A DNA stretch of 64,000 bases from a virus, in IMG/VR virus record IMGVR_UViG_3300028030_000012, positions 4,098 to 68,097 of that record. One strand, 5' to 3'. This document shows, piece after piece, positions 2,289 through 34,436 of the stretch. Each line of letters starts with the position of its first letter. The stretch's first letter is position 1. The position numbers and the translations under genes were made by a program. The notes beneath the pieces were generated by a model, which was given only the letters and a program-made list of their open reading frames with translations, was not told the origin of the DNA and did no database searches.

Positions 2289-3269
2289 TTAATTATTATT
2301 GAGTTTTAAAACACTTTCGGCAGGATCGCCTTTTGGGGCATCTTCTATTCGATTGTATTTTAAATTATTATTAAATTGTAGTACTTTGACTTCCCCATCC
2401 CTGTTTTTGAGTAGGTGAAGATAAATTTTATTTTTAGTGGGCCAATTCTTTTTTCCATATAATGCTATACCTAAAATTTCTGGTCTATGTATAACAATTA
2501 AATAGTCAGAAGCTTGGAACAGGGAATCTCCACCAAATATATCAGAACGCATAGGAAAATGCATAGAAGGGCTAGTAACACGATCACTTTTTTCTATATT
2601 CCTATTCATTTGAGAGAGTTGTATAATAGAAGTTCTACTCAGCTTTTTTACACGCATAAACATGTATTGAAGGTCTGTTAAAATCTTCCTCTCTGCGTCC
2701 CCAGTTCTACCTTTTGTTAGAAGTACATGGTCTAGCATTACGATAAGCCATTTATTTTTCGCTAAGGTTCTTAGGAAATGATGAATAGTTTCTTCAATTT
2801 CCTCCACATTGCCAGGCATATCTACATAATAGATTTCGTAATTTTTTATTTTCTCAGCAGCTCCTTTGACAGCGTCAAGGTCTGAATCTGAGAGTTTTTT
2901 AGAAGAATCTCCGCTATAGAGTTCTTTAGTTGTCTTATTTAGTTTACTAGAAAGTTTTCTGCCTACTTGTCGTGCGCTTAACATTTCAAAATTGAAAGAT
3001 AAAACGACAAAATTAGCATTTGGGTTTAGATCAAATAAATCTGTTTCAAGGCTATTTGCAAAACTACTTTTACCACTTCCTGAAATTCCTGCTATAGTCA
3101 TTATAATATTGGGTTCTATTCCTCCCATCGTAAGACGATTTAACTTTGACCAGCGAGTTTTAAGGGAATTTAAAATACCCTTTTTTCTTTTAGTGATATA
3201 ATCTACAGCTTCGTCAGATGCCACTGATATGTGCTTGTAATGAAGTATTTTATTCGAGCTCTTCTCCAT
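2289..3269 (-). CDS. dnaB: DnaB-like replicative helicase (motor domain only)
   Basis: AGISGSGKS, FNFEM, VMLDH, LSQMNR, LLKNRDG superfamily 4 motifs. Confidence 0.9.
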   Translation of the reverse strand: MEKSSNKILHYKHISVASDEAVDYITKRKKGILNSLKTRWSKLNRLTMGGIEPNIIMTIAGISGSGKSSFANSLETDLFDLNPNANFVVLSFNFEMLSARQVGRKLSSKLNKTTKELYSGDSSKKLSDSDLDAVKGAAEKIKNYEIYYVDMPGNVEEIEETIHHFLRTLAKNKWLIVMLDHVLLTKGRTGDAERKILTDLQYMFMRVKKLSRTSIIQLSQMNRNIEKSDRVTSPSMHFPMRSDIFGGDSLFQASDYLIVIHRPEILGIALYGKKNWPTKNKIYLHLLKNRDGEVKVLQFNNNLKYNRIEDAPKGDPAESVLKLNNN

Positions 3270-4134: not shown

Positions 4135-6108
4135 TCAATGACTCCAATGAGATGCTATTTCTGGAACAGTAGTCATTTTTATGTGTTTTACAAAAAATTC
4201 ACCTGCTTTTTCCATAGCATTTTTAAGTAGAGTGGAAGCTGTTTCAGCGAGTTCTTTTATAGCTTCTATGATTATTTCATCATGCACTACATTAACTAGC
4301 TTTATTTTAGCATTTTTAACAGGTCTTATATTTAATTTAAGAAGTTCGTTTCGAGCTAATATAAGGGCTGTTTTAGTCATATCTCCTGCAGTACCCTGTA
4401 CTGGAGTATTCATACCTTTACGTTCTACTCTACCTTTTGCTTTAGCAGCTTTACTTCGATCTTCTTTACTAAGTTGGTTATAGGGTTTATTTTGAAATTC
4501 TTGATAAATTTCCCATTCTGGTATCCATCTTATACGATTTGTAATAGTATTTGTACGAATATACCCATTAGTAAGTGCAAAGGTTTTATTTTTAGTAAAT
4601 AATGCTTTTAAAGTAGGGAACCCTGTATAAAAGGAATTTATAAGCTCTTCGGCTTCTGCTAATGCTATTTTAAGTGTTTTTGAAAGGGTAAAGGCAGACC
4701 CTCCGAAAGAGATCATAAAATTTAATATTTTTCCTTTTTGTCTGTATTCTTTATTTTCATTGGTTTTAGTCACAATGAATTTCTTGCCAAAAGAGGCTGA
4801 GAACATTTTAGTTGCAATAAAACTATGGGCATCTCCGTCACCATGATTAAAAAAATTAATGTAATCTTTATCTTTTGCTTTATCTGCCATTATTCTACCT
4901 TCTTGATTGGCATAATCAGCAGATATTATTAGATTACCAAATTCAGCTGTAAAAGCCTCTCTAAATTCTTTTTCACTTGGTATTTGCTGCATATTAGGAT
5001 TACTACTACTCATTCTACCAGTATCAACCATTTGATTAAAATGGGAATGTAGTCTACCATCTTTTTCTAAATGTTTTTCTAAGAACTTTTTTCCAAAAGT
5101 ACTTATTATTTTAGCTTCTTTTCTATACTGTATAAGTGCAGTTACGAATTCAGATTTACTATTCAGTAAGAGCAAAGCAGGAGTTCCTGAACCAGATTTT
5201 CCATCTTTGTCTTCAGGGAATATTTTAAATACTTCTGTAAGTATTTTATAAACTTGTTTGTCACTGTTCCAATTAACTGCAGTATATCTTTCTCTTTTAT
5301 TTGAGAAGAATAAGGATAATTGGAAAGCTTTTTGTTCGAAATTAGGATCTTTTTGAATTAAAAGAGTATCTAGTTTTTTAATGGTTTCTACTAATCTTAA
5401 TGAATAAGAAGTACTTATTTTTAACCATTTCCTAGTGCTAATAGCTATACCATTATATTCAATATCTGCTACTGCAAGTACAGATTTATTTTCGAGATTA
5501 ATAGTTTTATGTAATTTGTATTTTTTAATCCAATGTTTTTGAGCTTCTTTTATCTCTAAAGGGTATACTACATCCATAGCTCCATATTTTATTTGGTCAA
5601 AAGTAAAAGGGCTAGAGCTTAGTGTTGTAAATTCATTACGTATAGTTTTAGAGATTTCCTTTTCAAAATAATGTAAATAAACACCTGCTAAAGAAAAGCG
5701 TTTATTCAGCCTTATATAAGTTTGAGAGTATTTTCCATTATATATAACTTTGTCGGCTAACATAGTATCATATACTTTATACAAAACAATATTATATTGT
5801 TTTAACATATTGTAGTCAAATTTGATATTATGCCCTATAAATGTTATACTTTTTCTTTCTAAAAAGGGCTTTATGGTAGAAAAATCAAAACCCCTTGTGT
5901 CAATTACCAATTGAATATTTTTAAAACCTATTTGAAGCATTACGATATTGTCTGTTAGGGGGTTGAGGCCAGTAGTTTCAACATCTAAAGCTGCAAAATG
6001 ATTAATTTTAAACAGTTCTTTCAGTTTAACAAGGAGTTCGGATTTATCTATTTGTTTTATTTCAGAATCTTTCAAAAACGAAGTCTGTTCAGAATAGAAA
6101 TATATCAT
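4135..6108 (-). CDS. polA: family A DNA polymerase with 3'-5' exonuclease
   Basis: ExoI ALDVETTG, ExoII GHNIKFD, TGRMSSSNPNMQQIP, motif A DYANQE, motif B RQKGKILNF, motif C HDE. Confidence 0.95.
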   Translation of the reverse strand: MIYFYSEQTSFLKDSEIKQIDKSELLVKLKELFKINHFAALDVETTGLNPLTDNIVMLQIGFKNIQLVIDTRGFDFSTIKPFLERKSITFIGHNIKFDYNMLKQYNIVLYKVYDTMLADKVIYNGKYSQTYIRLNKRFSLAGVYLHYFEKEISKTIRNEFTTLSSSPFTFDQIKYGAMDVVYPLEIKEAQKHWIKKYKLHKTINLENKSVLAVADIEYNGIAISTRKWLKISTSYSLRLVETIKKLDTLLIQKDPNFEQKAFQLSLFFSNKRERYTAVNWNSDKQVYKILTEVFKIFPEDKDGKSGSGTPALLLLNSKSEFVTALIQYRKEAKIISTFGKKFLEKHLEKDGRLHSHFNQMVDTGRMSSSNPNMQQIPSEKEFREAFTAEFGNLIISADYANQEGRIMADKAKDKDYINFFNHGDGDAHSFIATKMFSASFGKKFIVTKTNENKEYRQKGKILNFMISFGGSAFTLSKTLKIALAEAEELINSFYTGFPTLKALFTKNKTFALTNGYIRTNTITNRIRWIPEWEIYQEFQNKPYNQLSKEDRSKAAKAKGRVERKGMNTPVQGTAGDMTKTALILARNELLKLNIRPVKNAKIKLVNVVHDEIIIEAIKELAETASTLLKNAMEKAGEFFVKHIKMTTVPEIASHWSH

Positions 6109-11139: not shown

Positions 11140-11598
11140 TTATACTCCTTTATCAATGAAATCTTCCAACTCTACTTGAAATTTTTCAAAGGATTCTTGT
11201 ATACGTTTTACAGCGGCACGAGTAGAGATATTAATGGTTTTAGCAAAGGCCTGTGCCATTTTTTCTTTGTCAAACCATGATCCGGGTTGTACTGTTACAT
11301 TTGCCTGGTCGAAAGGAATTTCAATTTTATCCTTAAAATTTTTTTTGATGTTGTCTGGATATAAAGGGGAGCCCTTTTTATTGATAAGGCTTCCACTTAT
11401 TAACAAAGCTGTTTTACTTTCGTTTGGCATTATTACCGCAATTTCTAAAGTTTCGATAGCGGCATAATTAAGGCTGTTAGGCACAATATGTTCTTTTAAA
11501 ATTGGGTCGTTGGACATTGGGGCAGTTACTACCCTGTGAATTTTTTGTCCGTAATGAAGTTTTATTACTTCTTCAATTCCTTTACTAAATGTGTTCAT
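11140..11598 (-). CDS. hypothetical protein
   Basis: 152-aa ORF. Confidence 0.7.
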   Translation of the reverse strand: MNTFSKGIEEVIKLHYGQKIHRVVTAPMSNDPILKEHIVPNSLNYAAIETLEIAVIMPNESKTALLISGSLINKKGSPLYPDNIKKNFKDKIEIPFDQANVTVQPGSWFDKEKMAQAFAKTINISTRAAVKRIQESFEKFQVELEDFIDKGV

Positions 11599-11926
11599 GG
11601 ATTATTTTTTTTAAAATTTTGAAAATTTCTTTATCTTCTCCTTTATTCCACATAGGCCGTTTGAATGCAAGTGTATCTATGATTGATTGAAAGGTTGTTA
11701 TAGGGTGTTTTAGTTCATAAAAAGTAATAGGTGAGTTTTTAGGGCAGTAGTACCAAGAATACTTTGTTTTTGATAGTATATTGAATCCATAGATTCTGTA
11801 AAGTAACTTATGGTGCTCTAGCGTTATGAATTTCCCAACTATTTTTTCTAAAGAAGTTACATCCTTTGTATTTTTTTCGGTTATTAATTTAGGAATTTCT
11901 TCTGTAAAATTAAAAATTATTTTCAT
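11585..11926 (-). CDS. hypothetical protein
   Basis: 113-aa ORF overlapping the next gene. Confidence 0.6.
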   Translation of the reverse strand: MKIIFNFTEEIPKLITEKNTKDVTSLEKIVGKFITLEHHKLLYRIYGFNILSKTKYSWYYCPKNSPITFYELKHPITTFQSIIDTLAFKRPMWNKGEDKEIFKILKKIIHEHI

Positions 11927-11934
11927 TTTTTAAA

Positions 11935-13120
11935 AGATTAGTAAGAGTAAGAACCTTAATAAGCTAAGTGTGGCAAAGTTAATGAGACTTCTTCACAGTC
12001 TTACTCTTACTCTTTTGATTCTATTATTCTAGATTCGCAATTTATTTCAGGTTGCGTTGATTTGTTCATGACGTTTCATGAACAGGTGTAAAAAAATTTT
12101 AAGGGGTTTTGTAAAATAAGGGCCTTTAGGATATCAAACAGTTTTAAATGTATTTCGTAAGATTGTGCTACTTTTACACCATAACCCTGTTGTAGGGTTT
12201 TGTAGGGTTCTATTCTGTTTTTATTTAATAAATATCGTTTACAGTACGACCTACTGTATTTTTCAGCGACTCTGTCTGCTTTTTACTTTATTCATTAATA
12301 AGATTAGTCTACCTACACCTTTCTTAAATTAAGTAGTTTATAGAAAGTTTTACGTTACGTATATTACAATTATACTTTTAAGAAAAACATTTATACTATT
12401 TATACTTCCTTTTTTTACTAATTTTGCATATTAAACTGCTGTTGGCCTTTAATATAGTATTTATAAAGTACTATATACCTAATCCAATGATGGCGGGATT
12501 CGAACTCTTTATAATCATTTCTAAGTATTTTACTAAGGAATAATCGCGTAACATGTCTCAACGGACTTCAACTTTAAAAGTATATATCTTTGACCTCTTG
12601 AATACACCATTGCATAATTTTAACAAATGTCACTAACCTCATCCTCATCAGGAATCTACTGTTAGTATAGACAGGGTACTATTTAGATCGTTATACTCTA
12701 ATAACATATCCTTTCTTTTATTTCCCAACTCTACGTTTACTCTATGTTTACCCAAGCCTCTGTATACTTAGGCCCCTCTTTTACCCGCATGGTTTTGGAC
12801 GCCATTGTTTTGACCTTATACATTTGATAAATGTCACTACGGTTATAGAAGTATTATTAGGCATGTATACTGCTGCACGTATAGGTAGGCAGCCATCCTA
12901 GGGCAGCATCCTGTTTACGGCAGTGTCTCACCTTTATTTGATTTTAAAGGGGCCGCCCATTTATTTCAACGTTTCTTAACAAAGTAATAAATACTTTTCA
13001 AGACCCTTCCTATAAATTAAAGTTTCAGGAGTTATTATAGTCTTCTAAACCTACTTAATTTCTTCACCGCTAGTCAGTACAGCGGTCCCTATTTGCGTTG
13101 TAATAGGTGTTTTAGGGGTT
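11935..13120. ncRNA. candidate large structured non-coding RNA region
   Basis: about 1.2 kb with no ORF of 60 aa or more in the track; many local and long-range inverted repeats. Confidence 0.5.
12485..12612 (-). ncRNA. tRNA-like element or degenerate tRNA
   Basis: acceptor-like CAATGGTG/CATCATTG, D-arm-like TATTCAAGAGGTCAAAGA, T-loop GTTCGAATCCC; T-stem broken and middle enlarged. Confidence 0.45.
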
Positions 13121-13124
13121 AATT

Positions 13125-14753
13125 TTAAAAATGATAAGAAACAATTTTAAAGTTTTTTCTAGGCAATCCCGAGGAATTTGCCAATGCAGTTACTTCTTGA
13201 ATTTTTGAAAAGGGCTTTACAGATTTGTTAACAACTTTTTTTATTTTAGATAATTCTTTTTTCAAAGTTTCTATATTATTAAAAGAGGAGTTAAATTCTA
13301 TATATTCAAAATCAAGTTCTATTATTAAAATCAGCCTTTTGTTATGTATAGCTATAGTAGCTTCATTTACAATTTTGAATCGTTTGGCTATTGATAATAT
13401 CTTTCCTGTTTCGATTACTAGACCTTTTTCATTAACAAAAATATTTTTTGTTTTGTTTTTAATTAAAACTTTATTATTGCGTACTAATCCAACGTCTTCA
13501 GTTCTAAATTTATTATTTTCGTCCTTAGGACTTGTTTGTTGTACTGTAATGTCAAAGTATTTCCATTTGTTATTATTTTCTAGGTAGCTATGAAAAAGAT
13601 CTGTACTAGTAACATTCAGTTCTCCAAAATCACTTACATCTCCAGTAGTATCAATAGATACGTTTTGTCTGGGAGTAAGCCATAAGTGCTTAGGTAACCT
13701 TGTCCAAGTTCCAGAAGCAATATAAGAGGACACTTCACTCATTACATAGAGCACTGTGTATTTTTTCTTGATTGAATTAAGTAATTTTCTTTTTGTAATT
13801 TTACCGTGTGTTATTATAGTTTTTATATGTTTACTAATGTGTTTTTTAAACAATCTCCTCATTATAAAGGAATGGCATAGTAATTTACAAAAAGGTGTAG
13901 ATTCTTGTTCTAATGTTTTTAATAGTATTTCTAATTTTTGAGTGTTAATATAAAGAGTTTTAACTTCAATTTCTTTAAAGGAATTGAATAAATCAGCGAT
14001 ATTATTTCCTTTACCTATTGTAACATGTTTACCATGTAATATAGGCGCTATTATACCATTTAAGATATCGTATAGGGAATTAAAAGGTTCTACTGTTAAT
14101 AAAGTATTTTCTATGTTATTAGAAAGTTCTTCATAAGAATCTTTTATTCCTTGATATATAGCGGAATGTTTTATGCGAGAGGCGGTATATAACCCTTTAG
14201 AAATCCCCTGATGAAAGAAAGTGCCTGTTACATGTTCAAAATTGGGATGCAAGTATGCTTCAGCTAGAGAAATATCGTCTTTATTGATTAAAGAGTCTTT
14301 TCCTGTACCTATACTGCTTACTACTTCAAATATTTTAGACATATAATCTTTTGTATCTTCATCTAATGCATTATAATTCCATCCTTTGGATATGATTTTG
14401 AATGTTCCAGGATGTAAGGTCAATAAAGTTTCATCTATAACTTCTTCTGCAATTATTACCCCATAACTTAATTTAGTTAACACTGTTTTTACTTTAGTAT
14501 CTTCTATATTATCTGAGGTGTCAAGAATTACAAAATTAGTCTCATAACTTAAACAAGCAATTATTGCAGCTATTCCATACATTTCATTGGTAACATATAT
14601 TCCAATTGTATCTGTAGTACTTACTCCTATACAACTTAAACTGCGTTCAATAAGTTCAGCTTTTTTAAGAATTTCTCCAGCAGTGTATGTCTTACCTTCA
14701 CTTGTTGTTAGTACAACTTCTAAGAAGTGTTTTTTTAGTTTTTTTTGAAGCAT
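13125..14753 (-). CDS. divergent AMP-binding (ANL, long-chain acyl-CoA ligase-like) protein
   Basis: 542 aa; colinear remnants PFNSLYD, YVMSE, FGELNV, FRTEDVG, IKNKTKNIFVNEKG. Confidence 0.65.
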   Translation of the reverse strand: MLQKKLKKHFLEVVLTTSEGKTYTAGEILKKAELIERSLSCIGVSTTDTIGIYVTNEMYGIAAIIACLSYETNFVILDTSDNIEDTKVKTVLTKLSYGVIIAEEVIDETLLTLHPGTFKIISKGWNYNALDEDTKDYMSKIFEVVSSIGTGKDSLINKDDISLAEAYLHPNFEHVTGTFFHQGISKGLYTASRIKHSAIYQGIKDSYEELSNNIENTLLTVEPFNSLYDILNGIIAPILHGKHVTIGKGNNIADLFNSFKEIEVKTLYINTQKLEILLKTLEQESTPFCKLLCHSFIMRRLFKKHISKHIKTIITHGKITKRKLLNSIKKKYTVLYVMSEVSSYIASGTWTRLPKHLWLTPRQNVSIDTTGDVSDFGELNVTSTDLFHSYLENNNKWKYFDITVQQTSPKDENNKFRTEDVGLVRNNKVLIKNKTKNIFVNEKGLVIETGKILSIAKRFKIVNEATIAIHNKRLILIIELDFEYIEFNSSFNNIETLKKELSKIKKVVNKSVKPFSKIQEVTALANSSGLPRKNFKIVSYHF

Positions 14754-21742: not shown

Positions 21743-21858
21743 GATTTTGGTTTGTTTAGTTTAACAATTTGTTTTATTTTACTACGTTCACCCTTAGTGA
21801 GTAGATGGTGCAAAGCTTTATTACTAACACCTGTAATTGATTTTAATGTTTCTTTCAT
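21739..21858 (-). CDS. small basic protein (39 aa, not in the track)
   Basis: preceded by the AAAACTGACAAAATG motif; ATGA overlap with the next gene. Confidence 0.55.
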   Translation of the reverse strand: MKETLKSITGVSNKALHHLLTKGERSKIKQIVKLNKPKS

Positions 21859-21961
21859 TTTGTCAGTTTTAAGTTATTTTATAGTTAAAAGCATAGAGCT
21901 TGACGTTTCAAGATATGCTTTAGCAAAATAAACGTACTACTACGCCTATATTCTGAATTGA

Positions 21962-22189
21962 TTAATAAAAAGTTACCTCTGTTATAGAATTTATTGGGAT
22001 GTATTTTATGATATTTACAAGAGGTATTACATTATTAGAAGTAGGATAGTCAGGGTTAGTTATAACCTTATGAGATACCCTAAGGCACTTTAAACCTAAT
22101 TGATTAGTGAGTTTACTATAGTTTGTGTGTACTTTATATTCTGTATTATTTGCAGTAATAAAGAGGCCTTGTTTTTTATAATTCCCCAT
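21962..22189 (-). CDS. hypothetical protein
   Basis: 75-aa ORF. Confidence 0.55.
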   Translation of the reverse strand: MGNYKKQGLFITANNTEYKVHTNYSKLTNQLGLKCLRVSHKVITNPDYPTSNNVIPLVNIIKYIPINSITEVTFY

Positions 22190-22201
22190 AATAATATTAA
22201 A

Positions 22202-22363
22202 TTAAAAGTCTTTGTCACACATTGAATAAGCAAAAGCAAGTATAGCAGCAATGCCTATTACGACAAATACTGTAGTGAGTTCAAAAGGTTTAAAACCTAA
22301 GGAGTGTGATAGTATTACACTAAAAGTAGCTATTAAAAGAATTGTAAATGTTTGACGTTTCAT
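22202..22363 (-). CDS. small two-TM membrane protein (53 aa, not in the track)
   Basis: MKRQTFTILLIATFSVIL...VFVVIGIAAILAFAY. Confidence 0.55.
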   Translation of the reverse strand: MKRQTFTILLIATFSVILSHSLGFKPFELTTVFVVIGIAAILAFAYSMCDKDF

Positions 22364-22508
22364 TTTGAATAAGTTTTAGTTATGTAATAATGATAAGCTA
22401 TATGAATACATCTCAATCGAAGGTAAACTAGGCACTGTCTAATTGAGGGAAAGAGGGAAGGTTCTACTATATAAAATAAGAGCATAAACACTATAAAATA
22501 AGGCTAAA

Positions 22509-22527
22509 TAGCCCTAAAATAGGGCTA
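22509..22527 (-). terminator. hairpin after the first leftward gene
   Basis: TAGCCCTA-aaa-TAGGGCTA. Confidence 0.45.
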
Positions 22528-22534
22528 AATAAGG

Positions 22535-22735
22535 TTATTCTAGTAGTTTTAGAGCCTCCTCTGGGACTTTAATAGCATCATCTACTTTGTAGCTTATATG
22601 ACCCTCTGGTGCGAACCAAGCAATGTAAGCATTACCTGCTTTAAGGAAGTCTCCAATTACTTCATTATCAAGTCCAATCATGTACCATTGGCCATTTTTG
22701 GCCTGTTTTAATTTAATAATCAATAAAGTTTTCAT
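22535..22735 (-). CDS. hypothetical protein, first gene of the leftward arm
   Basis: 66 aa, preceded by AAAACTGACAAAATG. Confidence 0.65.
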   Translation of the reverse strand: MKTLLIIKLKQAKNGQWYMIGLDNEVIGDFLKAGNAYIAWFAPEGHISYKVDDAIKVPEEALKLLE

Positions 22736-22814
22736 TTTGTCAGTTTTTGTGATTAAACATAGGGGGCTTCGCCCGCTTAGTTAGCATAGGGGGGACTTGA
22801 TGTATGATGGAATG

Positions 22815-22887
22815 GGCATTTAGACATATGCATAAAAATAAAAATTACTGAAATTTTTTTTGAGTAGGCATTTAGACATATACATAA
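22815..22887. repeat. 21-bp direct repeat pair at the strand switch
   Basis: GGCATTTAGACATATGCATAA (22815) and GGCATTTAGACATATACATAA (22867). Confidence 0.85.
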
Positions 22888-22976
22888 TTTTAATATATAA
22901 AATTCTAAAAAAATCACATATAAGCTATATAAAAATTATCGAAATCAAAAAAGTAGTAATTTTTTTTAGGTTTTAT

Positions 22977-23003
22977 TGAAACCTTTTGCCTACTATCCTC
23001 GTA
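22977..23003 (+). promoter_or_regulatory. AAC-N17-CGTA promoter-like motif, copy 2
   Basis: TGAAAC-cttttgcctactatcct-CGTA at the head of the rightward arm. Confidence 0.55.
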
Positions 23004-23132
23004 CCTATTATTAGAATTTTTTAATAAAAGAAAAGTAATACAAAAGAAAACAAAGCATAGAAGTAAGAATGTAAGACTATCGAAAGAGTAGTATAAATAG
23101 TTTGAGCGTTCAATTCACAACATGAATGTAGT

Positions 23133-23360
23133 GTGAATTTCACTAACAAAAGTAAATTAATATTAAGGTATATGAATATTAGTAAATACAAGTATAGTAA
23201 AAGTAGAATTACTGATTCCTTAAATGCTAATAGGTTAATACCTTTAGATATTAATAACAGCAGGGGGAAGAAGGCCAAACCTAAAGTACGTAAGCTAGTA
23301 CCTATGGCAACAGCCCTAGCAGACCCTATTTTAAAGGCTAAAATGGTTGGTAAATGGTAG
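23133..23360 (+). CDS. possible small basic protein (start uncertain, perhaps 23172)
   Basis: ORF overlapping the next start. Confidence 0.35.
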   Translation: MNFTNKSKLILRYMNISKYKYSKSRITDSLNANRLIPLDINNSRGKKAKPKVRKLVPMATALADPILKAKMVGKW

Positions 23361-27748: not shown

Positions 27749-30700
27749 ATGAAAGCTGAGTTAAAAGTAACAAAGAACAGTAATAAATTTAGAAAACCTG
27801 CATTACACTATCAAAAATATGACCAGTATTTGTTTGCTCCACAAGGCACTTCAGAATATGTAAAATACTGGTCTACAGAATATGATAGGTGTAAATTTGG
27901 TTATACAGCTGAGGATGGTGATTTCATCCCCGGCTATTTTTATTTCTACTTGAATTACTTTCCTATTAGTCTGATTAAAGAGGTTGAGGTAGAAATAGGG
28001 GTAGGTAAAACAAGTAGGAGGGCTTCGGCTATACGGGACTTTCCTAGTTTTTATGATTATGACAGGTTTTTCTTTGAGTCTATAGAGAATTGTGAAGAGG
28101 AGGGCAAACACCTTATAGTTCTAAAAGCTCGTCGTAAAGGGTATAGTTACAAAATAGCTTCAATGTTATTACGCAACTATTATTTTTTTAGAGGTTCTAA
28201 AGGATTTGCCCTAGCTGCAGAGGCAGAGTTTTTAGTAAAGGACGGTATTCTAACTAAGACTTGGGATGGCATGGACTTTTTAGATCAGCATACCGCTTGG
28301 TTTAAAAAAAGGCAAGTTAAGAATACTATGATGTGGCGTAGAGCCTCTTTCTTACAAAAAGATGACACTGGTGTAGATATTGAAATAGGCTACAAGTCTG
28401 AGATAATGGGGGTTACTTTAAAGAATGATCCTCAGAAAGCTAGGGGTAAAGGCGGCCGGCTTATTATATTTGAAGAGGCTGGTAAGTTTAGAAACCTATT
28501 ACAAGTATGGCAAATTGCGAGACCCTCTGTAGAACAAGGCTCTTTTGTACAAGGGACAATGATTGGTTTTGGATGTACGTTAGCGGGTACAAAGCTTTAT
28601 ACCAAAGAGGGTAGGTTAGTTAATGTAGAAGATTTAAAAATAGAGAGTGGGACTATAGGTTATAATGGATATTCTCATGAGAAGGAAGATATTGTAGGTA
28701 CCCTTTTTAGTTTTAAAAAACAGAGTTATAAAATTACATTGAATTCTGGTAGGTTTATAGAATGTAGTTATGACCATCCTATGCTATTCAGTAAAAGGGA
28801 TTTACAAGAGAGAGTGCCTGGGTTTAGAGGAGAAGGGCTGAGGCGTAAAAAAGTAAAATGGGCAAAAACTGAAGATTTAAAAATAGGGGATCAATTAGCT
28901 GTTTTAGAAGAATTTCCTTTTGAATCAAATAAAGAAATGTGGGAACCTCGTTTTATAGGGTTACTTATTGGAGATGGTTCTTATGGTTATAATAAAACAC
29001 CAGTACTATCTAATGCTGATGAAGAAGTTAATTCTTTTATAGATGATAGATTTAACACAGTAATAGAAAAATCTTATATTACAAAAGATGGTAGACTATA
29101 TAGAGAAACTAGAATAAAAGGAATTACTAAAAAATTACGGGGACTAGGGATCTATGGGCAAACTAAAAATAGAAAAGCTTTTCCCATTGATATACATTCT
29201 TATTCTGAAAATACTGTTACAGAAATATTAAGTGGGTTTTTTGATGCTGATGGGTATATTTATCAAACAAAAACAGGGCGTATTAGAATTAATTTTTCTT
29301 CTTCTTTTGATTTACTATTAGAAGTGCTTTATTTATTACAAAGATTGGGTATACATGGTAAAATACATTTTATAAAAGATGAAAGAAAAAATAGAAAAAT
29401 AAAAAGTAATGGGGGGTACTATAGACTTTCTATAGAAGATCTTAAGAGTTTACTTGTATTTTCTACTAAAATAATTTCACTTATTAATAGGAAACAAACC
29501 CTTTTAAATAAAATAGTTGGGTATGCATCTGTACATGAAAGTTCCTTAAGTAAATATATTTCTGGTATAAGATTCGAAAGGATTGTAAAAATAGAAGATT
29601 TAGGGGAACAGCCTGTTTATAATTTGCAAACTTCGAACACTCATACCTATATCGCTAATGGTATTGTAACTAAAAACACAGGGGGTGAGGAAGGCGAAGA
29701 TTTTGATGGTCTTAAAGAATTGTTTGAGAGGCCTAAAGCATACAATTGTTTAGAGTTAGATAATATATGGGATGAGGAAAATATTGGTCAAAAGGTAGGA
29801 TTCTTTGTACCACAGTATGCTAACTTAGAAGGGGAATATTATAATGAGGATGATAAGGATGACCCTTTAAATGGAGAGCCCTTTATGGATGATCAAGGTA
29901 ATACTAGAACTTTAGTAGCTAAGAAGTATGTGCTATTACAAAGGTCAAAAGTAATAAAGAATGCTTCAGATAGACGTGCTATAGATAGGCATATTGCTGA
30001 GCAGCCTATAATACCTGCAGAAGCCCTACTTGATTTAAGTTCTAATATATTCCCTAAAGCTGATTTGCAAAGGCATTTAGCTCATATAAGGAATGACGAA
30101 AAGTTACGTCAGTTTAAACAAGTGGGAGATTTATATTTTGATAATGAAGGTATTATAAAGTGGATGCCTGTAGAAGCTGATAAAGCTAAAGATATTATAA
30201 GGTATCGTTTAGATCCGCAAGACGACCCTAAGGGTCAAATAGTAATATGGGAACACCCTATGAAAGCCCCTCCTTGGGGCTTATATATAGCAGGCTGTCT
30301 TACTCCAGGTGAGAAAGTAAATACTTCAGAAGGATTAAAGAATGTGGAGGATGTAACACTAGAAGATAAACTCATAAATAAAGAAGGGGAAGAAGTCGAA
30401 ATAAATACTTTATTAAGATATGAAAAAGTAAACGAACCTACTTATAAAGTGCATATGTATAATGTGGATAGGCCTACTAATTATACACAAGAACATCCTT
30501 TATATGTAGCAGATATTCCTGAAGGTAAGTTCGATTTTATAAGGGCAGAAGAAGTTGAAAAAGGCATGTGGACTAAAGCTCCTAATTATTATAAAATAAA
30601 TTCTAAAGAGATTGATACTACTATTTGGGATAATTATAAAACTAGAAATACAAAAGATACTAATCCTTTGTTAGATGAAGATTTTTGGTGGTTTGTAGGA

Positions 30701-32083
30701 CATTGGTTAGGAGACGGGTTCAATCATAAACAAGGGAGAAATTATACTATTTACAATTCTTTCGGTAAAAAAGAAACTGATTATATAGACAAGTATAAAA
30801 GAATTGTTAAAGAACTTTTTAATAGAAATCCTAATCCCAAAGTTCAAAATGGATCTGGTACGCATAAGTTTGAATTTAAACAATTATTCTTATTCTTAGA
30901 AGATAATTTTGGTAAATATGCCGATGGTAAGTATATTTCTGAATGGGTTAAGTATATACCTGAAGAATATAAACTTCAATTAGTTTTAGGATATTTAGAT
31001 TCTGACGGATCTGTTTATTTAGATAACAATAGAATAGTTAGTAGTTTTAAAAGTATTAATAGAAAATTACTTTATGATATACAAGACATTTTATTTTCGG
31101 TAGGAATTGTATCTAGTTTTCATTTGTCTGAAAAGAAAGGGAAATACAATATTAAGGGGAAAATTGGAAATAGAAAAGAAAGTTATCGTTTAAGAGTGAA
31201 TCAGACAAATACTGTAAAATTATATAATTTATACAATTCTTTATACAATAGTAGAAAATTAAAGTTGATAGGAGTTAATAAAAACGGAATAAATTTTGTT
31301 AAAAGCAGAGGTTGTCAAATGTCTGAGGATTTAACTTATATTTACATTAAAATAAAAAATATAGAAGTGTCTACATATTCGGGTACCGTTTATAATTTTG
31401 ATTGTAAAACACACAGTTTTATATGTCAGTACTTCTCGGGACATAACTGTGACCCCTATGATCACGATAAATCAGGGACTAATTCTTTAGGTTCTACTTT
31501 TATATTTAAACGAATACAGAGTTTTGAAGAATATTATGATATGCCTGTAGCAGAGTATACTGGTAGGCCGGATACTGCAGCAGAATATTATGAGAATGTT
31601 CGTAAATTACTTATGTATTATAATGCTACTTTATTATATGAAAATGAGAAGAAAGGTTTATTCTTTTATTTTGAAAAAGTAAACGCCACTTATTTATTAG
31701 CAGACCAGCCTAATGATTTAATAGGAGATATTGTAAAAGATAGTAAAGTAGACAGGAAAAAAGGAATCCATATGTCTCAGTTTATTAAGGACTGGGGAGA
31801 GGGTGCAATAAGGGACTGGTTAGTCGAAGAGTTTGCCCCAGGTAAAAAGAATCTTACCAAAATAATGTCGGAACCTTTATTAGAGGAACTCATAGCCTAC
31901 AATGATAAAGGTAATTTCGATAGGGTAATGGCATTCATGTTGGTCATGATGTACCGACAACAACTGCATAAGTTGCATGTTAAGAAAAATCGTTTGGAAA
32001 ATAAAAAGCGCTTGTTATTTCCTGATGGTTTATTTACAGGCTATGATGATGAGGAAAATTATACGTATAACATTTCAATTTAA
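27749..32083 (+). CDS. terL: terminase large subunit with two inteins (about 692 aa after splicing)
   Basis: LKARRKGYS Walker A, IFEEAG Walker B, CDPYD nuclease, GNFDRV. Confidence 0.93.
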   Translation: MKAELKVTKNSNKFRKPALHYQKYDQYLFAPQGTSEYVKYWSTEYDRCKFGYTAEDGDFIPGYFYFYLNYFPISLIKEVEVEIGVGKTSRRASAIRDFPSFYDYDRFFFESIENCEEEGKHLIVLKARRKGYSYKIASMLLRNYYFFRGSKGFALAAEAEFLVKDGILTKTWDGMDFLDQHTAWFKKRQVKNTMMWRRASFLQKDDTGVDIEIGYKSEIMGVTLKNDPQKARGKGGRLIIFEEAGKFRNLLQVWQIARPSVEQGSFVQGTMIGFGCTLAGTKLYTKEGRLVNVEDLKIESGTIGYNGYSHEKEDIVGTLFSFKKQSYKITLNSGRFIECSYDHPMLFSKRDLQERVPGFRGEGLRRKKVKWAKTEDLKIGDQLAVLEEFPFESNKEMWEPRFIGLLIGDGSYGYNKTPVLSNADEEVNSFIDDRFNTVIEKSYITKDGRLYRETRIKGITKKLRGLGIYGQTKNRKAFPIDIHSYSENTVTEILSGFFDADGYIYQTKTGRIRINFSSSFDLLLEVLYLLQRLGIHGKIHFIKDERKNRKIKSNGGYYRLSIEDLKSLLVFSTKIISLINRKQTLLNKIVGYASVHESSLSKYISGIRFERIVKIEDLGEQPVYNLQTSNTHTYIANGIVTKNTGGEEGEDFDGLKELFERPKAYNCLELDNIWDEENIGQKVGFFVPQYANLEGEYYNEDDKDDPLNGEPFMDDQGNTRTLVAKKYVLLQRSKVIKNASDRRAIDRHIAEQPIIPAEALLDLSSNIFPKADLQRHLAHIRNDEKLRQFKQVGDLYFDNEGIIKWMPVEADKAKDIIRYRLDPQDDPKGQIVIWEHPMKAPPWGLYIAGCLTPGEKVNTSEGLKNVEDVTLEDKLINKEGEEVEINTLLRYEKVNEPTYKVHMYNVDRPTNYTQEHPLYVADIPEGKFDFIRAEEVEKGMWTKAPNYYKINSKEIDTTIWDNYKTRNTKDTNPLLDEDFWWFVGHWLGDGFNHKQGRNYTIYNSFGKKETDYIDKYKRIVKELFNRNPNPKVQNGSGTHKFEFKQLFLFLEDNFGKYADGKYISEWVKYIPEEYKLQLVLGYLDSDGSVYLDNNRIVSSFKSINRKLLYDIQDILFSVGIVSSFHLSEKKGKYNIKGKIGNRKESYRLRVNQTNTVKLYNLYNSLYNSRKLKLIGVNKNGINFVKSRGCQMSEDLTYIYIKIKNIEVSTYSGTVYNFDCKTHSFICQYFSGHNCDPYDHDKSGTNSLGSTFIFKRIQSFEEYYDMPVAEYTGRPDTAAEYYENVRKLLMYYNATLLYENEKKGLFFYFEKVNATYLLADQPNDLIGDIVKDSKVDRKKGIHMSQFIKDWGEGAIRDWLVEEFAPGKKNLTKIMSEPLLEELIAYNDKGNFDRVMAFMLVMMYRQQLHKLHVKKNRLENKKRLLFPDGLFTGYDDEENYTYNISI
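28574..29677 (+). mobile_element. intein 1 with LAGLIDADG endonuclease (368 aa)
   Basis: GFG|CTLAGT ... YIANGIVTKN|T; FIGLLIGDG and LSGFFDADG. Confidence 0.9.
30296..31447 (+). mobile_element. intein 2 with LAGLIDADG endonuclease (384 aa)
   Basis: IAG|CLTPGE ... FSGHN|CDPYD; VGHWLGDG and LGYLDSDG. Confidence 0.9.
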
Positions 32084-32087
32084 TAAA

Positions 32088-34436
32088 ATGGCATCATCTT
32101 ACAATCCTGAGAGCAGTGTGGTACCTTACCAAATGCTTTCGCTAAGGGAGAAAAATGAAAAATGGAAAAAGGCCAGTGTAGACGCTTTTATATCAAAGTT
32201 CTATTTTGGAAATAATAATACTGCTGGTCGTAAGCAGCAAATGAAAATATCCTATGATTTATACAATGGGATATTTGATGAGAAGGATCTTAAATATGTT
32301 ACAGATCCTTATAAAGTTAATGATAGTTTCCCAGCTTCATTGCAGAATTTTAATATTATCAAGCCTAAAATAGACTTGTTAATGGGAGAAGAAACTAAAA
32401 GGCCTTTTTCTCTTAGGGTAGCCCAGACTGATGGGGAAGCCACTACGAAATTTCAGTCTAAACATAAAGAACTTTTAATAGCTACTTTATCGGATATATT
32501 AGGGGAAGGGGATTCTGACGCTCCTCTTACAGAAGAAGAGATGGATAAACTACTTTCAGTTGGGGACTACATGTCTAAAGATTATTCAGATATATCTGAG
32601 ACTACTGCTTTTCATACTTTAAATTATTTGAAGGAAAAAGAAAATTTAAAATATAAATTTATGGAGGGCTTCCATGATTTGATTTGTGCAAGTATGGAGG
32701 TTTATTATACAGGCCAGTTAAATGGGGAGCCTATTGCTGAGCGTGTTAACCCTCTATTTTTTAGTTTTGACTATAGTCCAGAAGTTCAGTTTATAGAGGA
32801 TGGGGAATGGGCAGTTAGAAGATTGCGCATGACCCCTGCAGCTATTTATGATCGTTTTTATGATATAATGGACGAGTCTGATTTAAAGGAGCTTACTTTA
32901 AGGCATAGTCAATCGGGTTATGAGAGTAAAGGAAATAGCAGGGAATATAATCATATAAGATGGAGAAATATTTCTGTAGATGGAAACGATAGCTGTGATG
33001 CCTTTACAGGCAATACTATAGATGTGTGGCATGCCACTTGGAAGTCTTATAAGAAAGTGGGGTTTCTGGCTTATTTAGACGAGAATGGGGAACCTCAAGA
33101 AGAAGTTGTAGATGAGACCTATAAGGTACAAGAAAATGAAGAGGTTACTTGGGACTGGGTTTTAGAAGTTTGGGAAGGCTATAGAATAGGTGACGGTATA
33201 TATGTAGGAATAAGGCCTATACCGGAACAATCTGTATCTATAGATAATCCTAATGGTAATAAATTACCCTATGTAGGTGTTGTCTATAATAATAACAATA
33301 CAGCCCCTAAGTCTTTAGTAGAGACTATGAAGCCTTTACAGTATATGTATATTGTAATATGGTATCGGCTAGAGTTAGCTATTGCAAGAGATAAGGGCAA
33401 AATTATAAACATGGATGTTACTCAAATACCTAAATCAATGGGTGTAGATGTTAATAAATGGCTTCATTATTTATCCTCAGCTGGTGTAAATCTTATTAAT
33501 CCTTATGAAGAAGGATGGGATGTGCCAGGTAGAGAAGGGGGGAAAGCCTCTCAATTCAACCAATTTAGTCAAGTGGATCTTACGATGTCTTCAGTTATTT
33601 CTGAATATATAGGCCTCATGGATAAGATAGAGGATATGATGGGAGAAATTTCAGGGGTATCCAGACAGCGTCAAGGGCAGGTACAGTCTAATGAACTTGT
33701 AGGCAATGTACAGCAAACGATAACGCAGTCATCTCATATCACAGAACCTTTGTTTTTTGCGCATATGCAAGTTAAAAAAAGAGTTTTATCAAACCTGTTA
33801 AATATTGCTAAAAATGTGTGGCACAAGTCTGGCAAAGAAAAACTAAACTACATCTACGATGACGTTACAAGGGTATTTTTAGATATTACAGATGATTTTG
33901 TGTATGCGGATCATACTATATTTGTAACCGACAGTACAGAGGAGAATAGAAACTTAGAGATGATTAAAAATCTTTACCAACCTGCTATGCAGAATGGGGC
34001 TTCACTATCAGAAATTGCTGAGATTATGGCGTCTAACAATCTTACAGATATTAAAAATAAACTTAAAAAATTAGAAATGGATAGGGCTAAGCAGGAACAG
34101 CAACAGCAACAGCAGCAACAACAATCTCTTATGGAAATAGAGAAGATGCGCAAGGAAGCTGAGGATAACAAGCTAAAATTAGAAATGAATAAGTTAGAAG
34201 TAACAGAGAGGGATTCTATTCGGGATTCTGAAACTTCTATAGAAGTAGCTTTGATTGGGGCAGACTCTAAAGAAGTTTTAGAAGTGCATAAGAATAGAAT
34301 TGCTCAAGATAAAGTGGATAAAGAGACATCAGTGAAAAGAGAAGAATTAGAGGAACAACGAAGATCTAATCAATCTATTGAAGAAATTAAAAGAATGGAG
34401 GCTAGAAATAAAGCCAAACAAAAAACAATAAACTAG
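32088..34436 (+). CDS. portal protein (start revised from 31977)
   Basis: follows TerL; YDLYNG, NFNIIKPKIDLLMGEE, GVSRQRQG; ATG 4 nt after the TerL stop. Confidence 0.88.
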   Translation: MASSYNPESSVVPYQMLSLREKNEKWKKASVDAFISKFYFGNNNTAGRKQQMKISYDLYNGIFDEKDLKYVTDPYKVNDSFPASLQNFNIIKPKIDLLMGEETKRPFSLRVAQTDGEATTKFQSKHKELLIATLSDILGEGDSDAPLTEEEMDKLLSVGDYMSKDYSDISETTAFHTLNYLKEKENLKYKFMEGFHDLICASMEVYYTGQLNGEPIAERVNPLFFSFDYSPEVQFIEDGEWAVRRLRMTPAAIYDRFYDIMDESDLKELTLRHSQSGYESKGNSREYNHIRWRNISVDGNDSCDAFTGNTIDVWHATWKSYKKVGFLAYLDENGEPQEEVVDETYKVQENEEVTWDWVLEVWEGYRIGDGIYVGIRPIPEQSVSIDNPNGNKLPYVGVVYNNNNTAPKSLVETMKPLQYMYIVIWYRLELAIARDKGKIINMDVTQIPKSMGVDVNKWLHYLSSAGVNLINPYEEGWDVPGREGGKASQFNQFSQVDLTMSSVISEYIGLMDKIEDMMGEISGVSRQRQGQVQSNELVGNVQQTITQSSHITEPLFFAHMQVKKRVLSNLLNIAKNVWHKSGKEKLNYIYDDVTRVFLDITDDFVYADHTIFVTDSTEENRNLEMIKNLYQPAMQNGASLSEIAEIMASNNLTDIKNKLKKLEMDRAKQEQQQQQQQQQSLMEIEKMRKEAEDNKLKLEMNKLEVTERDSIRDSETSIEVALIGADSKEVLEVHKNRIAQDKVDKETSVKREELEEQRRSNQSIEEIKRMEARNKAKQKTIN

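Follow-up and report, generated by a model that had tools for sequence, protein, structure and literature searches.

Phages are known to carry only a few large non-coding RNAs (ncRNAs), GOLLD and ROOL among them, and no function has yet been established for these. tRNA-like elements also serve as processing handles, as exemplified by mascRNA at the 3′ end of MALAT1 and by the tRNA-like sites that RNase P cuts in bacterial operon transcripts, and tRNA-like domains that combine an acceptor-like helix with a T-loop-like element, and have no anticodon arm, are found in transfer-messenger RNA (tmRNA) and in bacterial Y RNA (YrlA). The subject of the present analysis is a non-coding block between positions 11,935 and 13,120 of a 64,000-nucleotide (nt) stretch of viral DNA, hereafter the window, which is part of IMG/VR record IMGVR_UViG_3300028030_000012 (68,097 nt; completeness estimate 66%). 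In excerpts of bioRxiv 10.1101/2024.12.08.627333, GOLLD is described as a large ncRNA of phages and prophages, of unknown function, that consists of a conserved and a less conserved part and whose linker region sometimes has tRNAs embedded in it, and ROOL as a phage and prophage RNA of about 0.6 kb, equally of unknown function and often located near tRNA genes. From sequence comparison, the block is best read as a conserved, modular, non-coding element that acts at the RNA level in a small clade of environmental crAss-like phages, and the RNA as belonging to a new family.

The gene upstream of the block encodes a protein of 542 amino acids (aa), for which 11 homologues besides itself were found in a database of 5.8 billion proteins, all of them metagenomic and 33-50% identical. 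Locus DNA was obtained for three of the 11: L002 lies on a complete 96.4-kb (96,402 nt) IMG/VR genome with direct terminal repeats (G001), L003 lies on a 5.2-kb metagenome contig, and L004 is cut before the end of the 542-aa gene homologue and hence before the region of interest. In all three examinable loci the gene is followed by a gap free of open reading frames (ORFs), of 1198 nt in the window, 1128 nt in L003 and 1129 nt in L002. Homologues of a 113-aa and then a 152-aa protein lie downstream of the gap in L003 and L002, in the same order as in the window, and a homologue of a 99-aa protein precedes the 542-aa gene in both. The termini of the flanking genes on either side of the gap are conserved in all relatives, and the neighbouring proteins are just 49% and 33% identical between loci.

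In the window, the gap (11927-13124) is flanked by two minus-strand genes (13125-14753, 542 aa; 11585-11926, 113 aa). The original prediction had described it as the largest ORF-free stretch of a tightly packed genome and as a hairpin-dense candidate for a large phage ncRNA. It is indeed the window's longest stretch without an ORF of at least 60 aa in any frame, while at a threshold of 80 aa the stretch 21743-23020 slightly exceeds it in length. No long frame was found in the gap under translation table 11, with TAG read as glutamine, or under table 4; the longest frame is 125 aa (plus strand, TAG as glutamine, start codon not required). Conserved small ORFs that might explain the region were looked for in the gap, and none was found. 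Moreover, six-frame tblastn between the gaps of the loci gave no frame-specific similarity, with scores of at most 35 bits scattered over all six frames, compared with 100-209 bits for the true frames of control genes against L003. The block therefore contains no conserved reading frame, as had been predicted, and a protein-coding gene under a reassigned code was rejected. Since the gap is present in all three loci and shows no frame similarity, it is a conserved non-coding feature, not a hole in the annotation or an assembly artefact.

The total length of the gap is nearly constant among the three loci (1198, 1128 and 1129 nt in the window, L003 and L002), while its 5′ part grows (447, 497 and 560 nt) and the wider 3′ variable segment, 12477-12025 in the window, shrinks (453, 350 and 307 nt). 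This near-constancy may be a coincidence or a constraint on spacing.

The best-supported element of the gap is a tRNA-shaped module, which the original prediction had missed. Its parts are as follows.

12618-12476, minus strand: tRNA-shaped module, ~140 nt, supported by pairing counts and a hold-out model
12612-12605 / 12492-12485, minus strand: closing (acceptor-like) helix, 8 base pairs (bp)
12605-12588, minus strand: D-arm-like 3-bp hairpin inside the first conserved motif
12547-12537 / 12521-12511, minus strand: long arm, 11 bp
12513-12492, minus strand: T-loop-like invariant 22-nt motif

The module further comprises a UA linker and a variable middle, and 16 nt of it are absent in L002. 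Two motifs anchor it in all three loci: GTATKCAAGNGNNCRAAG, and, 57-75 nt after it, TATAAAGAGTTYRAATCCCRCC, of which all 22 positions fit a degenerate pattern in every locus and which occurs only once in the window even when three mismatches are allowed. Base pairing joins the 8 nt whose last position is the first G of the first motif to the 8 nt that start from the last C of the second. The two strands of this closing helix read CAATGGTG/CATCATTG in the window, CTTAAACG/CGTTTAAG in L003 and TATATAAAAG/CTTTTATATA in L002, and the register is the same in all three. In shuffled sequences, a helix that long between two 12-nt windows arises with p values of 0.024, 0.002 and 0.006, which combine to ~3e-5 by our Fisher calculation, with the identical register not yet counted.

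Across the module, 62 of 66 cells (93.9%) hold standard pairs in a plain MAFFT alignment, as opposed to 31-48% when the partners are slid by 1-3 columns, and 11 of the 22 pairs are changed on both sides, as opposed to 1-2 for slid partners. None of 500 shuffles reached any of the five pairing measures, and a model-fitted alignment gave identical pairing counts. The pairing is thus kept through compensatory changes. A hold-out test is more telling than these counts, because the structure they evaluate was drawn from the same sequences: a covariance model built from the window and L003 found the syntenic site in L002 with 69.2 bits (E 3.7e-14), where 21 of 22 pairs are standard and one is non-standard, while the best other match in the 232,598 nt searched scored 17.9 bits. 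The module is present in one copy per genome; in the G001 record it lies ~8 kb from one end.

The original prediction named no strand. Eleven of the 62 paired cells are G.U pairs, including three invariant ones in the long arm; read from the plus strand they would become C.A, which places the structure on the minus strand. Together with the orientation of the genes, the G.U pairs point to the minus strand as that on which the element would act. The identity of the module is 52-59% over all columns for every pair of loci; between L003 and L002 it reaches 67% over ungapped columns, where the neighbouring gene has 50% at codon position 1 and 37% at position 3. By this comparison, the module is under purifying selection.

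The module is tRNA-shaped, yet it is not a tRNA. With default settings, ARAGORN found no tRNA or tmRNA in the window, L002, L003 or L005, and a search with RF00005 found no tRNA in either of the two phage genomes, one of which is complete. When the ARAGORN threshold was lowered to 80% and introns were allowed, a cloverleaf was drawn on the module in all three loci, with an 8-bp acceptor, the UA linker, a D-like arm, an 11-bp arm at the place of a class II extra arm and a UUYRAAU loop. The "anticodons" and "introns" of these calls disagree among the three loci, and the other calls at that threshold are plainly spurious. A tRNA identity was therefore rejected, given the lack of a default-threshold detection, a T stem with two of five pairs and three different relaxed anticodons; there is no conserved anticodon arm. 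An identity as tmRNA was likewise rejected, there being no call by default ARAGORN or by cmscan and only spurious "permuted" calls at lowered thresholds.

On the minus strand, the block begins with twin hairpins, followed by a core of ~370 nt, the ~140-nt module, an AT-rich spacer of ~400 nt and a long hairpin. The elements other than the module are located as follows.

13107-13088 / 13086-13066, minus strand: twin hairpins H1 / H2, beginning 18 nt after the stop codon
12681-13050, minus strand: conserved core including a GC-richer part, ~370 nt, known from two sequences (window and L003)
13050-13044 / 12687-12681, minus strand: possible closing helix of the core, window and L003 only
12958-12952 / 12907-12901, minus strand: inner core helix GGGCGGC / GCTGCCC, window and L003 only
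12672-12654 and 12653-12642, minus strand: two small hairpins between core and module
12086-12475, minus strand: AT-rich variable spacer, no detectable sequence conservation, folding z near 0 except at the 3′ end
12063-12084 (9-bp stem) and 12036-12056, minus strand: two short hairpins seen in the window
11940-12011, minus strand: long terminal hairpin, ending 13 nt before the ATG of the next gene

Conservation is unevenly distributed over this arrangement. Over the first ~650 nt after the stop codon, the window and L003 are about as conserved as over their coding flanks: the 5′ part is 59% identical over ungapped columns, while the 542-aa gene has identities of 60%, 75% and 47% at codon positions 1, 2 and 3. 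Over the next ~300-450 nt, identity is 0.27 over all columns, compared with 0.29 for a shuffled control, and the GC content of the variable spacer is 0.25-0.32 (0.25-0.26 in the AT-rich stretch 12201-12500). In L002, the 5′ part was not found by an nhmmer profile of the window and L003; this locus shares the two post-stop hairpins, the one ~140-nt module and the terminal hairpin.

Within the core, RNAalifold on the window and L003 predicts 81 pairs, 21 of which are changed on both sides. The GC-rich helix reads GGGCGGC/GCTGCCC in the window and GAGTAGC/GCTACTT in L003, and the long-range helix closing the ~370 nt reads GTTTAGA/TCTAAAT and ATTTGAG/CTCAAAT, respectively, although this closing helix is individually weak (shuffle p 0.22, 0.16 and 0.017). 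In a test with 500-column windows, the minus strand of 13030-12599 had the lowest consensus energy of 26 window-strand combinations (-52.5) and the largest excess of compensatory pairs (21 vs 9.3 ± 1.6 in 12 shuffles). The core is best taken as a conserved sequence with a possible structure, not as a demonstrated ornate RNA. Of the two small hairpins that follow it, the one at 12672-12654 is near-identical in L003, and the stem at 12653-12642 is TCCT/AGGA in the window and GGGA/TCCC in L003, with three of four pairs changed on both sides; L002 is not alignable here.

The hairpins at the two borders of the gap were judged sequence by sequence rather than by alignment columns, because MAFFT placed them out of structural register. 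Two adjacent hairpins follow the stop codon in all three loci (z -3.8, -4.3 and -3.2), with no U-run after them, and in L002 the flanks of H2 are exchanged in a compensatory manner, from AC..GT to TT..AA. At the other end, all three loci have a long hairpin that ends 13-20 nt ahead of the next ATG (z -4.1, -3.9 and -2.0), and its sequences are unrelated. Its stem has 13 bp in the window and L003, where no U run follows immediately, and is an 8-bp G-rich stem followed by UUUUUU in L002. A consensus scan of the window called no minus-strand terminator at this hairpin.

All stems and repeats on which the original prediction had been based are present in the window, at the positions it had given.

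11940-11952 / 11999-12011: stem with 13-nt perfect arms
12063-12071 / 12076-12084: stem TGTTCATGA / TCATGAACA
12085-12093 / 12172-12180: long-range stem GGTGTAAAA / TTTTACACC
12240 / 12252: stem TACAGTA / TACTGTA
12843 / 13007: nested stem TTATAGAAG / CTTCCTATAA
12850 / 12990: nested stem AAGTATT / AATACTT
12871 / 12903: stem TGCTGC / GCAGCA
13066 / 13081: stem ACCGCT / AGCGGT
12625 and 12829: repeated 11-mer AAATGTCACTA

Two of these recur in relatives, namely the ACCGCT/AGCGGT stem, which is H2, and the long hairpin at 11940/11999. The first of the two sites of the 11-mer is not kept in the alignment with the closest relative, and its double occurrence may be due to chance. The proposal that the whole 1.2 kb is dense in hairpins stood in one part only. 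When 200-nt windows were compared with 30 dinucleotide shuffles each, z was -4.4 (plus strand) and -6.1 (minus strand) at 11901-12100, and -3.7 and -2.9, respectively, at 12001-12200. The other 200-nt windows between 12101 and 13200 lay close to their shuffles, at z +1.25 to -2.05, and the minus strand of 12476-13124 folded as a whole gave z -0.39, with 7 of 20 shuffles folding as well. Folding better than shuffles is thus confined to 11901-12200 (z -3 to -6), so that the most striking hairpins sit in the 3′ part, which has no detectable sequence conservation, while the conserved 5′ part folds like shuffled sequence, and a uniformly hairpin-dense RNA of 1.2 kb is not what the locus contains. 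As for the claim of a structured RNA, compensatory changes uphold it for the module, while two of the three comparative tests did not discriminate.

The prediction that the block cannot be assigned to a family holds as well. Infernal cmscan with 4227 Rfam families gave nothing at gathering score across the 64 kb; the block itself had two chance-level matches only (E 1.9 and 8.2), and the loci of the relatives had 10 sub-threshold matches, none in common with the window. The suggested kinship with GOLLD or ROOL found no support: GOLLD (RF02032; gathering score 150 bits) had no match at E up to 10 in either genome and is absent among the sub-threshold cmscan hits, and ROOL (RF03087; 99.1 bits) had none at E up to 10 either, although control genomes were silent too and this search adds little to cmscan. 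The group II intron model RF01998 (group-II-D1D4-1) matched neither of the two genomes, and a group I or II intron was rejected, with no intron family in cmscan and flanking genes that have conserved termini. RNAs associated with UG27 reverse transcriptases, as presented in the consulted portion of PMC9226505, were set aside, as Pfam scans of 18 window proteins showed no reverse transcriptase. Literature searches on crAss-like phages (Crassvirales), supplementary files not covered, yielded no account of an element of this kind: PMC7886860 contains none of the terms non-coding, noncoding, intergenic and ncRNA, and within the part consulted of bioRxiv 10.64898/2026.08.21.746148, the single "tRNA-like" passage concerns tRNA pseudogenes.

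Searches for further relatives yielded little. Single-protein scans of viral contigs gave nothing; profile scans gave one locus from viral contigs, two loci from metagenomes (one of them L004) and none from genome contigs; and a scan with the 152-aa family returned only an already known contig. Neither blastn nor tblastn found a match among GenBank phages. DNA motif scans of viral contigs returned the same relative contig each time: one gave a single stretch, in a second 14 of 15 stretches were rejected as chance matches without a second motif, and in another, four of five stretches were rejected by the covariance model. An occurrence of the 22-nt motif at 6869-6890 of L007, a high-GC contig of an Acidobacteriota metagenome-assembled genome, was dismissed as chance, since it has no second motif or helix partner and ~0.5 chance matches are expected in the genome-contig collection by our estimate.

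The genes around the block are the following.

13125-14753, minus strand: 542-aa divergent protein with an adenylate-forming (ANL) fold; the block starts right after its stop codon
11585-11926, minus strand: 113-aa protein with homologues in L003 and L002
11140-11598, minus strand: 152-aa conserved protein with homologues in L003 and L002

The 542-aa protein has no homologue in 50,697 GenBank phage records. It matches the Pfam family AMP-binding with E 1.3e-5, which is below the family cut-off, and its AlphaFold model (mean confidence score, pLDDT, 69.7) was matched by Foldseek against the PDB to adenylation domains of nonribosomal peptide synthetases, MatB and DltA (E ~1e-16, TM 0.44). As modeled, it adopts an adenylate-forming enzyme fold, and traces of the usual core motifs can be made out by eye in the consensus of the family alignment. 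No Pfam or PHROG family was found for the 113-aa and 152-aa proteins; the latter has too few homologues, and its model (pLDDT 80.8) has no fold match in the PDB with E below 0.06. Among the nearby proteins, no Pfam or PHROG family suggests work on RNA, Pfam scans of 18 proteins from the minus-strand block revealed neither a Ro-type nor an SmpB-type neighbour, and inspection by eye recognised no carrier-protein motif in the 99-aa upstream protein.

The crAss-like character of the phage is evident from its structural genes: the terminase matches phrog_6681 (E 1.7e-132), the portal phrog_6547 (E 2.9e-155) and the major head protein phrog_11589 (E 6.7e-107). A portal search returned 154 GenBank phage records, all below 60% identity, with crAss-like phages (cr131_1, cr118_1) in the top rows at ~47%. 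The block lies in a minus-strand gene block that spans 21742 down to 253 with short gaps between genes and that also encodes an M23 peptidase and the following replication proteins.

2289-3269, minus-strand block: DnaB-like helicase
4135-6108, minus-strand block: family A DNA polymerase
906-1604, minus-strand block: AAA_24 protein

Elsewhere in the window, the switch from minus to plus strand (21743-23353) contains small ORFs only, of 43-85 aa, and the cumulative GC skew has its single clear bend at 21-23 kb; the strand-switch region is more likely than the block studied here to be an origin or a site of divergent promoters. The plus-strand ORF at 27749-32083 (1444 aa) matches the terminase large subunit family in three separate stretches, with additional weak matches to ribonucleotide reductase, primase and helicase families, and looks like a terminase gene split by inserted domains, possibly inteins. 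Its 3′ end is overlapped by ~100 nt by the portal ORF (31977-34436). Two adjacent plus-strand ORFs, at 41318-45883 (1521 aa) and 45886-50454 (1522 aa), are of nearly equal length, and the first is almost without PHROG match.

Together, the conservation, pairing and strand of the module suggest that the block probably acts as RNA on the minus strand in some way. A more specific form of this reading is held tentatively, with confidence falling slightly short of even: the block would give rise to a stand-alone RNA of ~0.65 kb with the tRNA-shaped module as its 3′ handle for tRNA-processing enzymes. The first ~0.65 kb (13112-12476) would be released as a separate, stable RNA, the 3′ module would be recognised by host enzymes of the RNase P or RNase Z type, and these would cut the RNA from the operon transcript and so define its end. 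The spacer and the terminal hairpin would then act as a terminator or as the leader of the next genes. That the block is transcribed, that the RNA is released on its own and that it is processed are the steps that we infer.

Several observations weigh against this interpretation. The sole public run containing the window DNA is a DNA run from a hydrothermal-vent metagenome, from which the assembly itself probably stems, and no promoter was identified in the block. In none of the three sequences do the conserved 650-743 nt fold better than shuffles (z -0.39, -0.36 and -1.58), and the module by itself gives z +0.61, -2.35 and -1.48. With windows of 150 columns, consensus folding z scores failed to tell the gap and its coding flanks apart, and coding windows in the 500-column test also reach energy z scores of -4 to -7.5. 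When pairs of single-sequence minimum free energy structures were projected onto a relative, the fraction kept after change was 0.34-0.37 in the gap and 0.26-0.36 in genes. With three sequences in total, statistics of the R-scape type are impossible; the core, undetectable in L002 by the nhmmer profile, rests on two; and the structure evaluated in the pairing counts was drawn from the same three sequences, which favours it. Finally, the T stem has two of five standard pairs, invariantly so in all three loci, and there is no conserved CCA at the 3′ end of the module, so that recognition by tRNA enzymes is a guess.

The block could instead be a cis-acting untranslated segment of a long operon transcript rather than a separate RNA. 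In that case, the role of the post-stop hairpins would be to stabilise the upstream message or to bring it to an end, and that of the module to serve between cistrons as a site of processing or protein binding. The start of the next gene would be under the control of the terminal hairpin, and the remainder would be spacer. As all genes from 21742 to 253 lie on the minus strand with short gaps, read-through is the simplest expectation, and it accords with the lack of a convincing minus-strand promoter or U-tract terminator inside the block, with its ordinary folding energy over most of its length and with the location of structured pieces at both gene borders. Yet a spacer would hardly be expected to retain over 1.1 kb in three genomes that are tightly packed elsewhere, the window and L003 are as similar in the ~370-nt core as at first codon positions (0.59 vs 0.60), and the module sits mid-gap, away from either gene border, all of which makes this explanation, the leading alternative, rather unlikely. 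An element acting as DNA, be it a replication origin, a packaging site or another protein-binding region, is improbable. Conserved boxes, an AT-rich stretch for unwinding and hairpins that form in single-stranded DNA would be its components, and the position of the block within the replication module, the AT-rich 12201-12500 beside strong inverted repeats and the unexceptional RNA folding energy of the conserved blocks all agree with it. It is contradicted by the dependence of the module helices on G.U pairs, which are mismatched on the other strand, and by pairing that is kept through two-sided changes across 115 nt. Furthermore, the block has no iterons, only short repeats in two copies, and no skew inflection occurs at 12-13 kb, the bend lying at 21-23 kb; an origin at the block was rejected on these two counts, though the AT-rich stretch is present.

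The remaining alternatives concern the history of the module. Decaying remnants of a dead tRNA gene and dead protein genes, with no present function, might explain why the module looks like a class II tRNA in decay, its T stem mismatched and its anticodon arm missing, why the 3′ 400 nt are unconserved and why neither phage genome has a working tRNA. However, between L003 and L002 the module surpasses first codon positions in conservation (0.67 vs 0.50), its helices are maintained by compensatory changes, and the gap has been retained in three lineages with protein identities down to 33%, with no residual frame similarity; decay is thus very unlikely. Attachment sites (attP) of phages whose integrases target tRNA genes carry the T loop, the 3′ strand of the T stem and the 3′ strand of the acceptor. 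The invariant motif can be read as just this succession, and the block might on these grounds be an attachment site that contains the 3′ portion of a host tRNA gene. This explanation is exceedingly improbable, given that no tyrosine integrase (PF00589) is found in the record of the window or in the complete 96.4-kb relative, and that the acceptor-like 3′ strand differs among the three phages, each matched by its own strand ~115 nt upstream, a complementary strand that an attP has no reason to keep.

A further conjecture links the RNA element to its upstream neighbour, as the 542-aa gene and the RNA block are adjacent in all three loci and the fold of the enzyme is clear. The tRNA-shaped module might be the partner of the adenylate-forming enzyme in a phage RNA-charging pair, a proposal that must be considered a long shot. 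With similarly slight probability, the enzyme would activate a carboxylic or amino acid and load it on the 3′ end of an RNA that mimics a tRNA acceptor; it would do so outside the aminoacyl-tRNA synthetase families, with the core as the body of a new large phage RNA, and this part is just as speculative.

Overall, the locus is a real, conserved non-coding one with a new tRNA-shaped RNA module, and the giant hairpin-dense RNA first proposed is only partly borne out. A further family in crAss-like phages from outside the gut would, if true, widen the set of large phage ncRNAs and be open to study with the methods already applied to them. In the element, a tRNA mimic that does not decode follows a conserved body, and an unusual adenylate-forming enzyme is encoded next to it; a selected tRNA-shaped module in phages that lack tRNAs offers a handle on how phages use the tRNA-processing or tRNA-binding machinery of the host. 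Even if it were only an intercistronic processing site, it would be a rare documented case in this phage order.

Compared with GOLLD, the block is likewise borne by a phage, as the crAss-like terminase large subunit, portal and capsid attest, and it likewise has a conserved part, a variable part and a tRNA-shaped piece. In contrast to GOLLD, it has no real tRNA embedded and no tRNA gene or tRNA island alongside, with no tRNA in either genome, and its folding energy is ordinary, with no ornate covarying structure demonstrable. With ROOL, the proposed RNA would share a phage or prophage origin and a size of about 0.6 kb. The module resembles the tRNA-like domains of tmRNA and YrlA in having an acceptor-like helix and a T-loop-like element but no anticodon arm; cmscan gave no tmRNA or Y RNA match at E up to 10. 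The module differs from a tRNA in its lack of a conserved anticodon arm and of a conserved CCA and in the two of five pairs of its T stem, while it resembles one in its 8-bp acceptor-like helix, UA linker, D-arm-like hairpin and class-II-like long arm, and in a T-loop-like UUYRAAU motif that immediately precedes the 3′ strand of the closing helix. As a non-decoding, tRNA-shaped module placed behind a longer RNA, it is reminiscent of handles of the mascRNA type, a likeness that would be one of analogous mechanism only.

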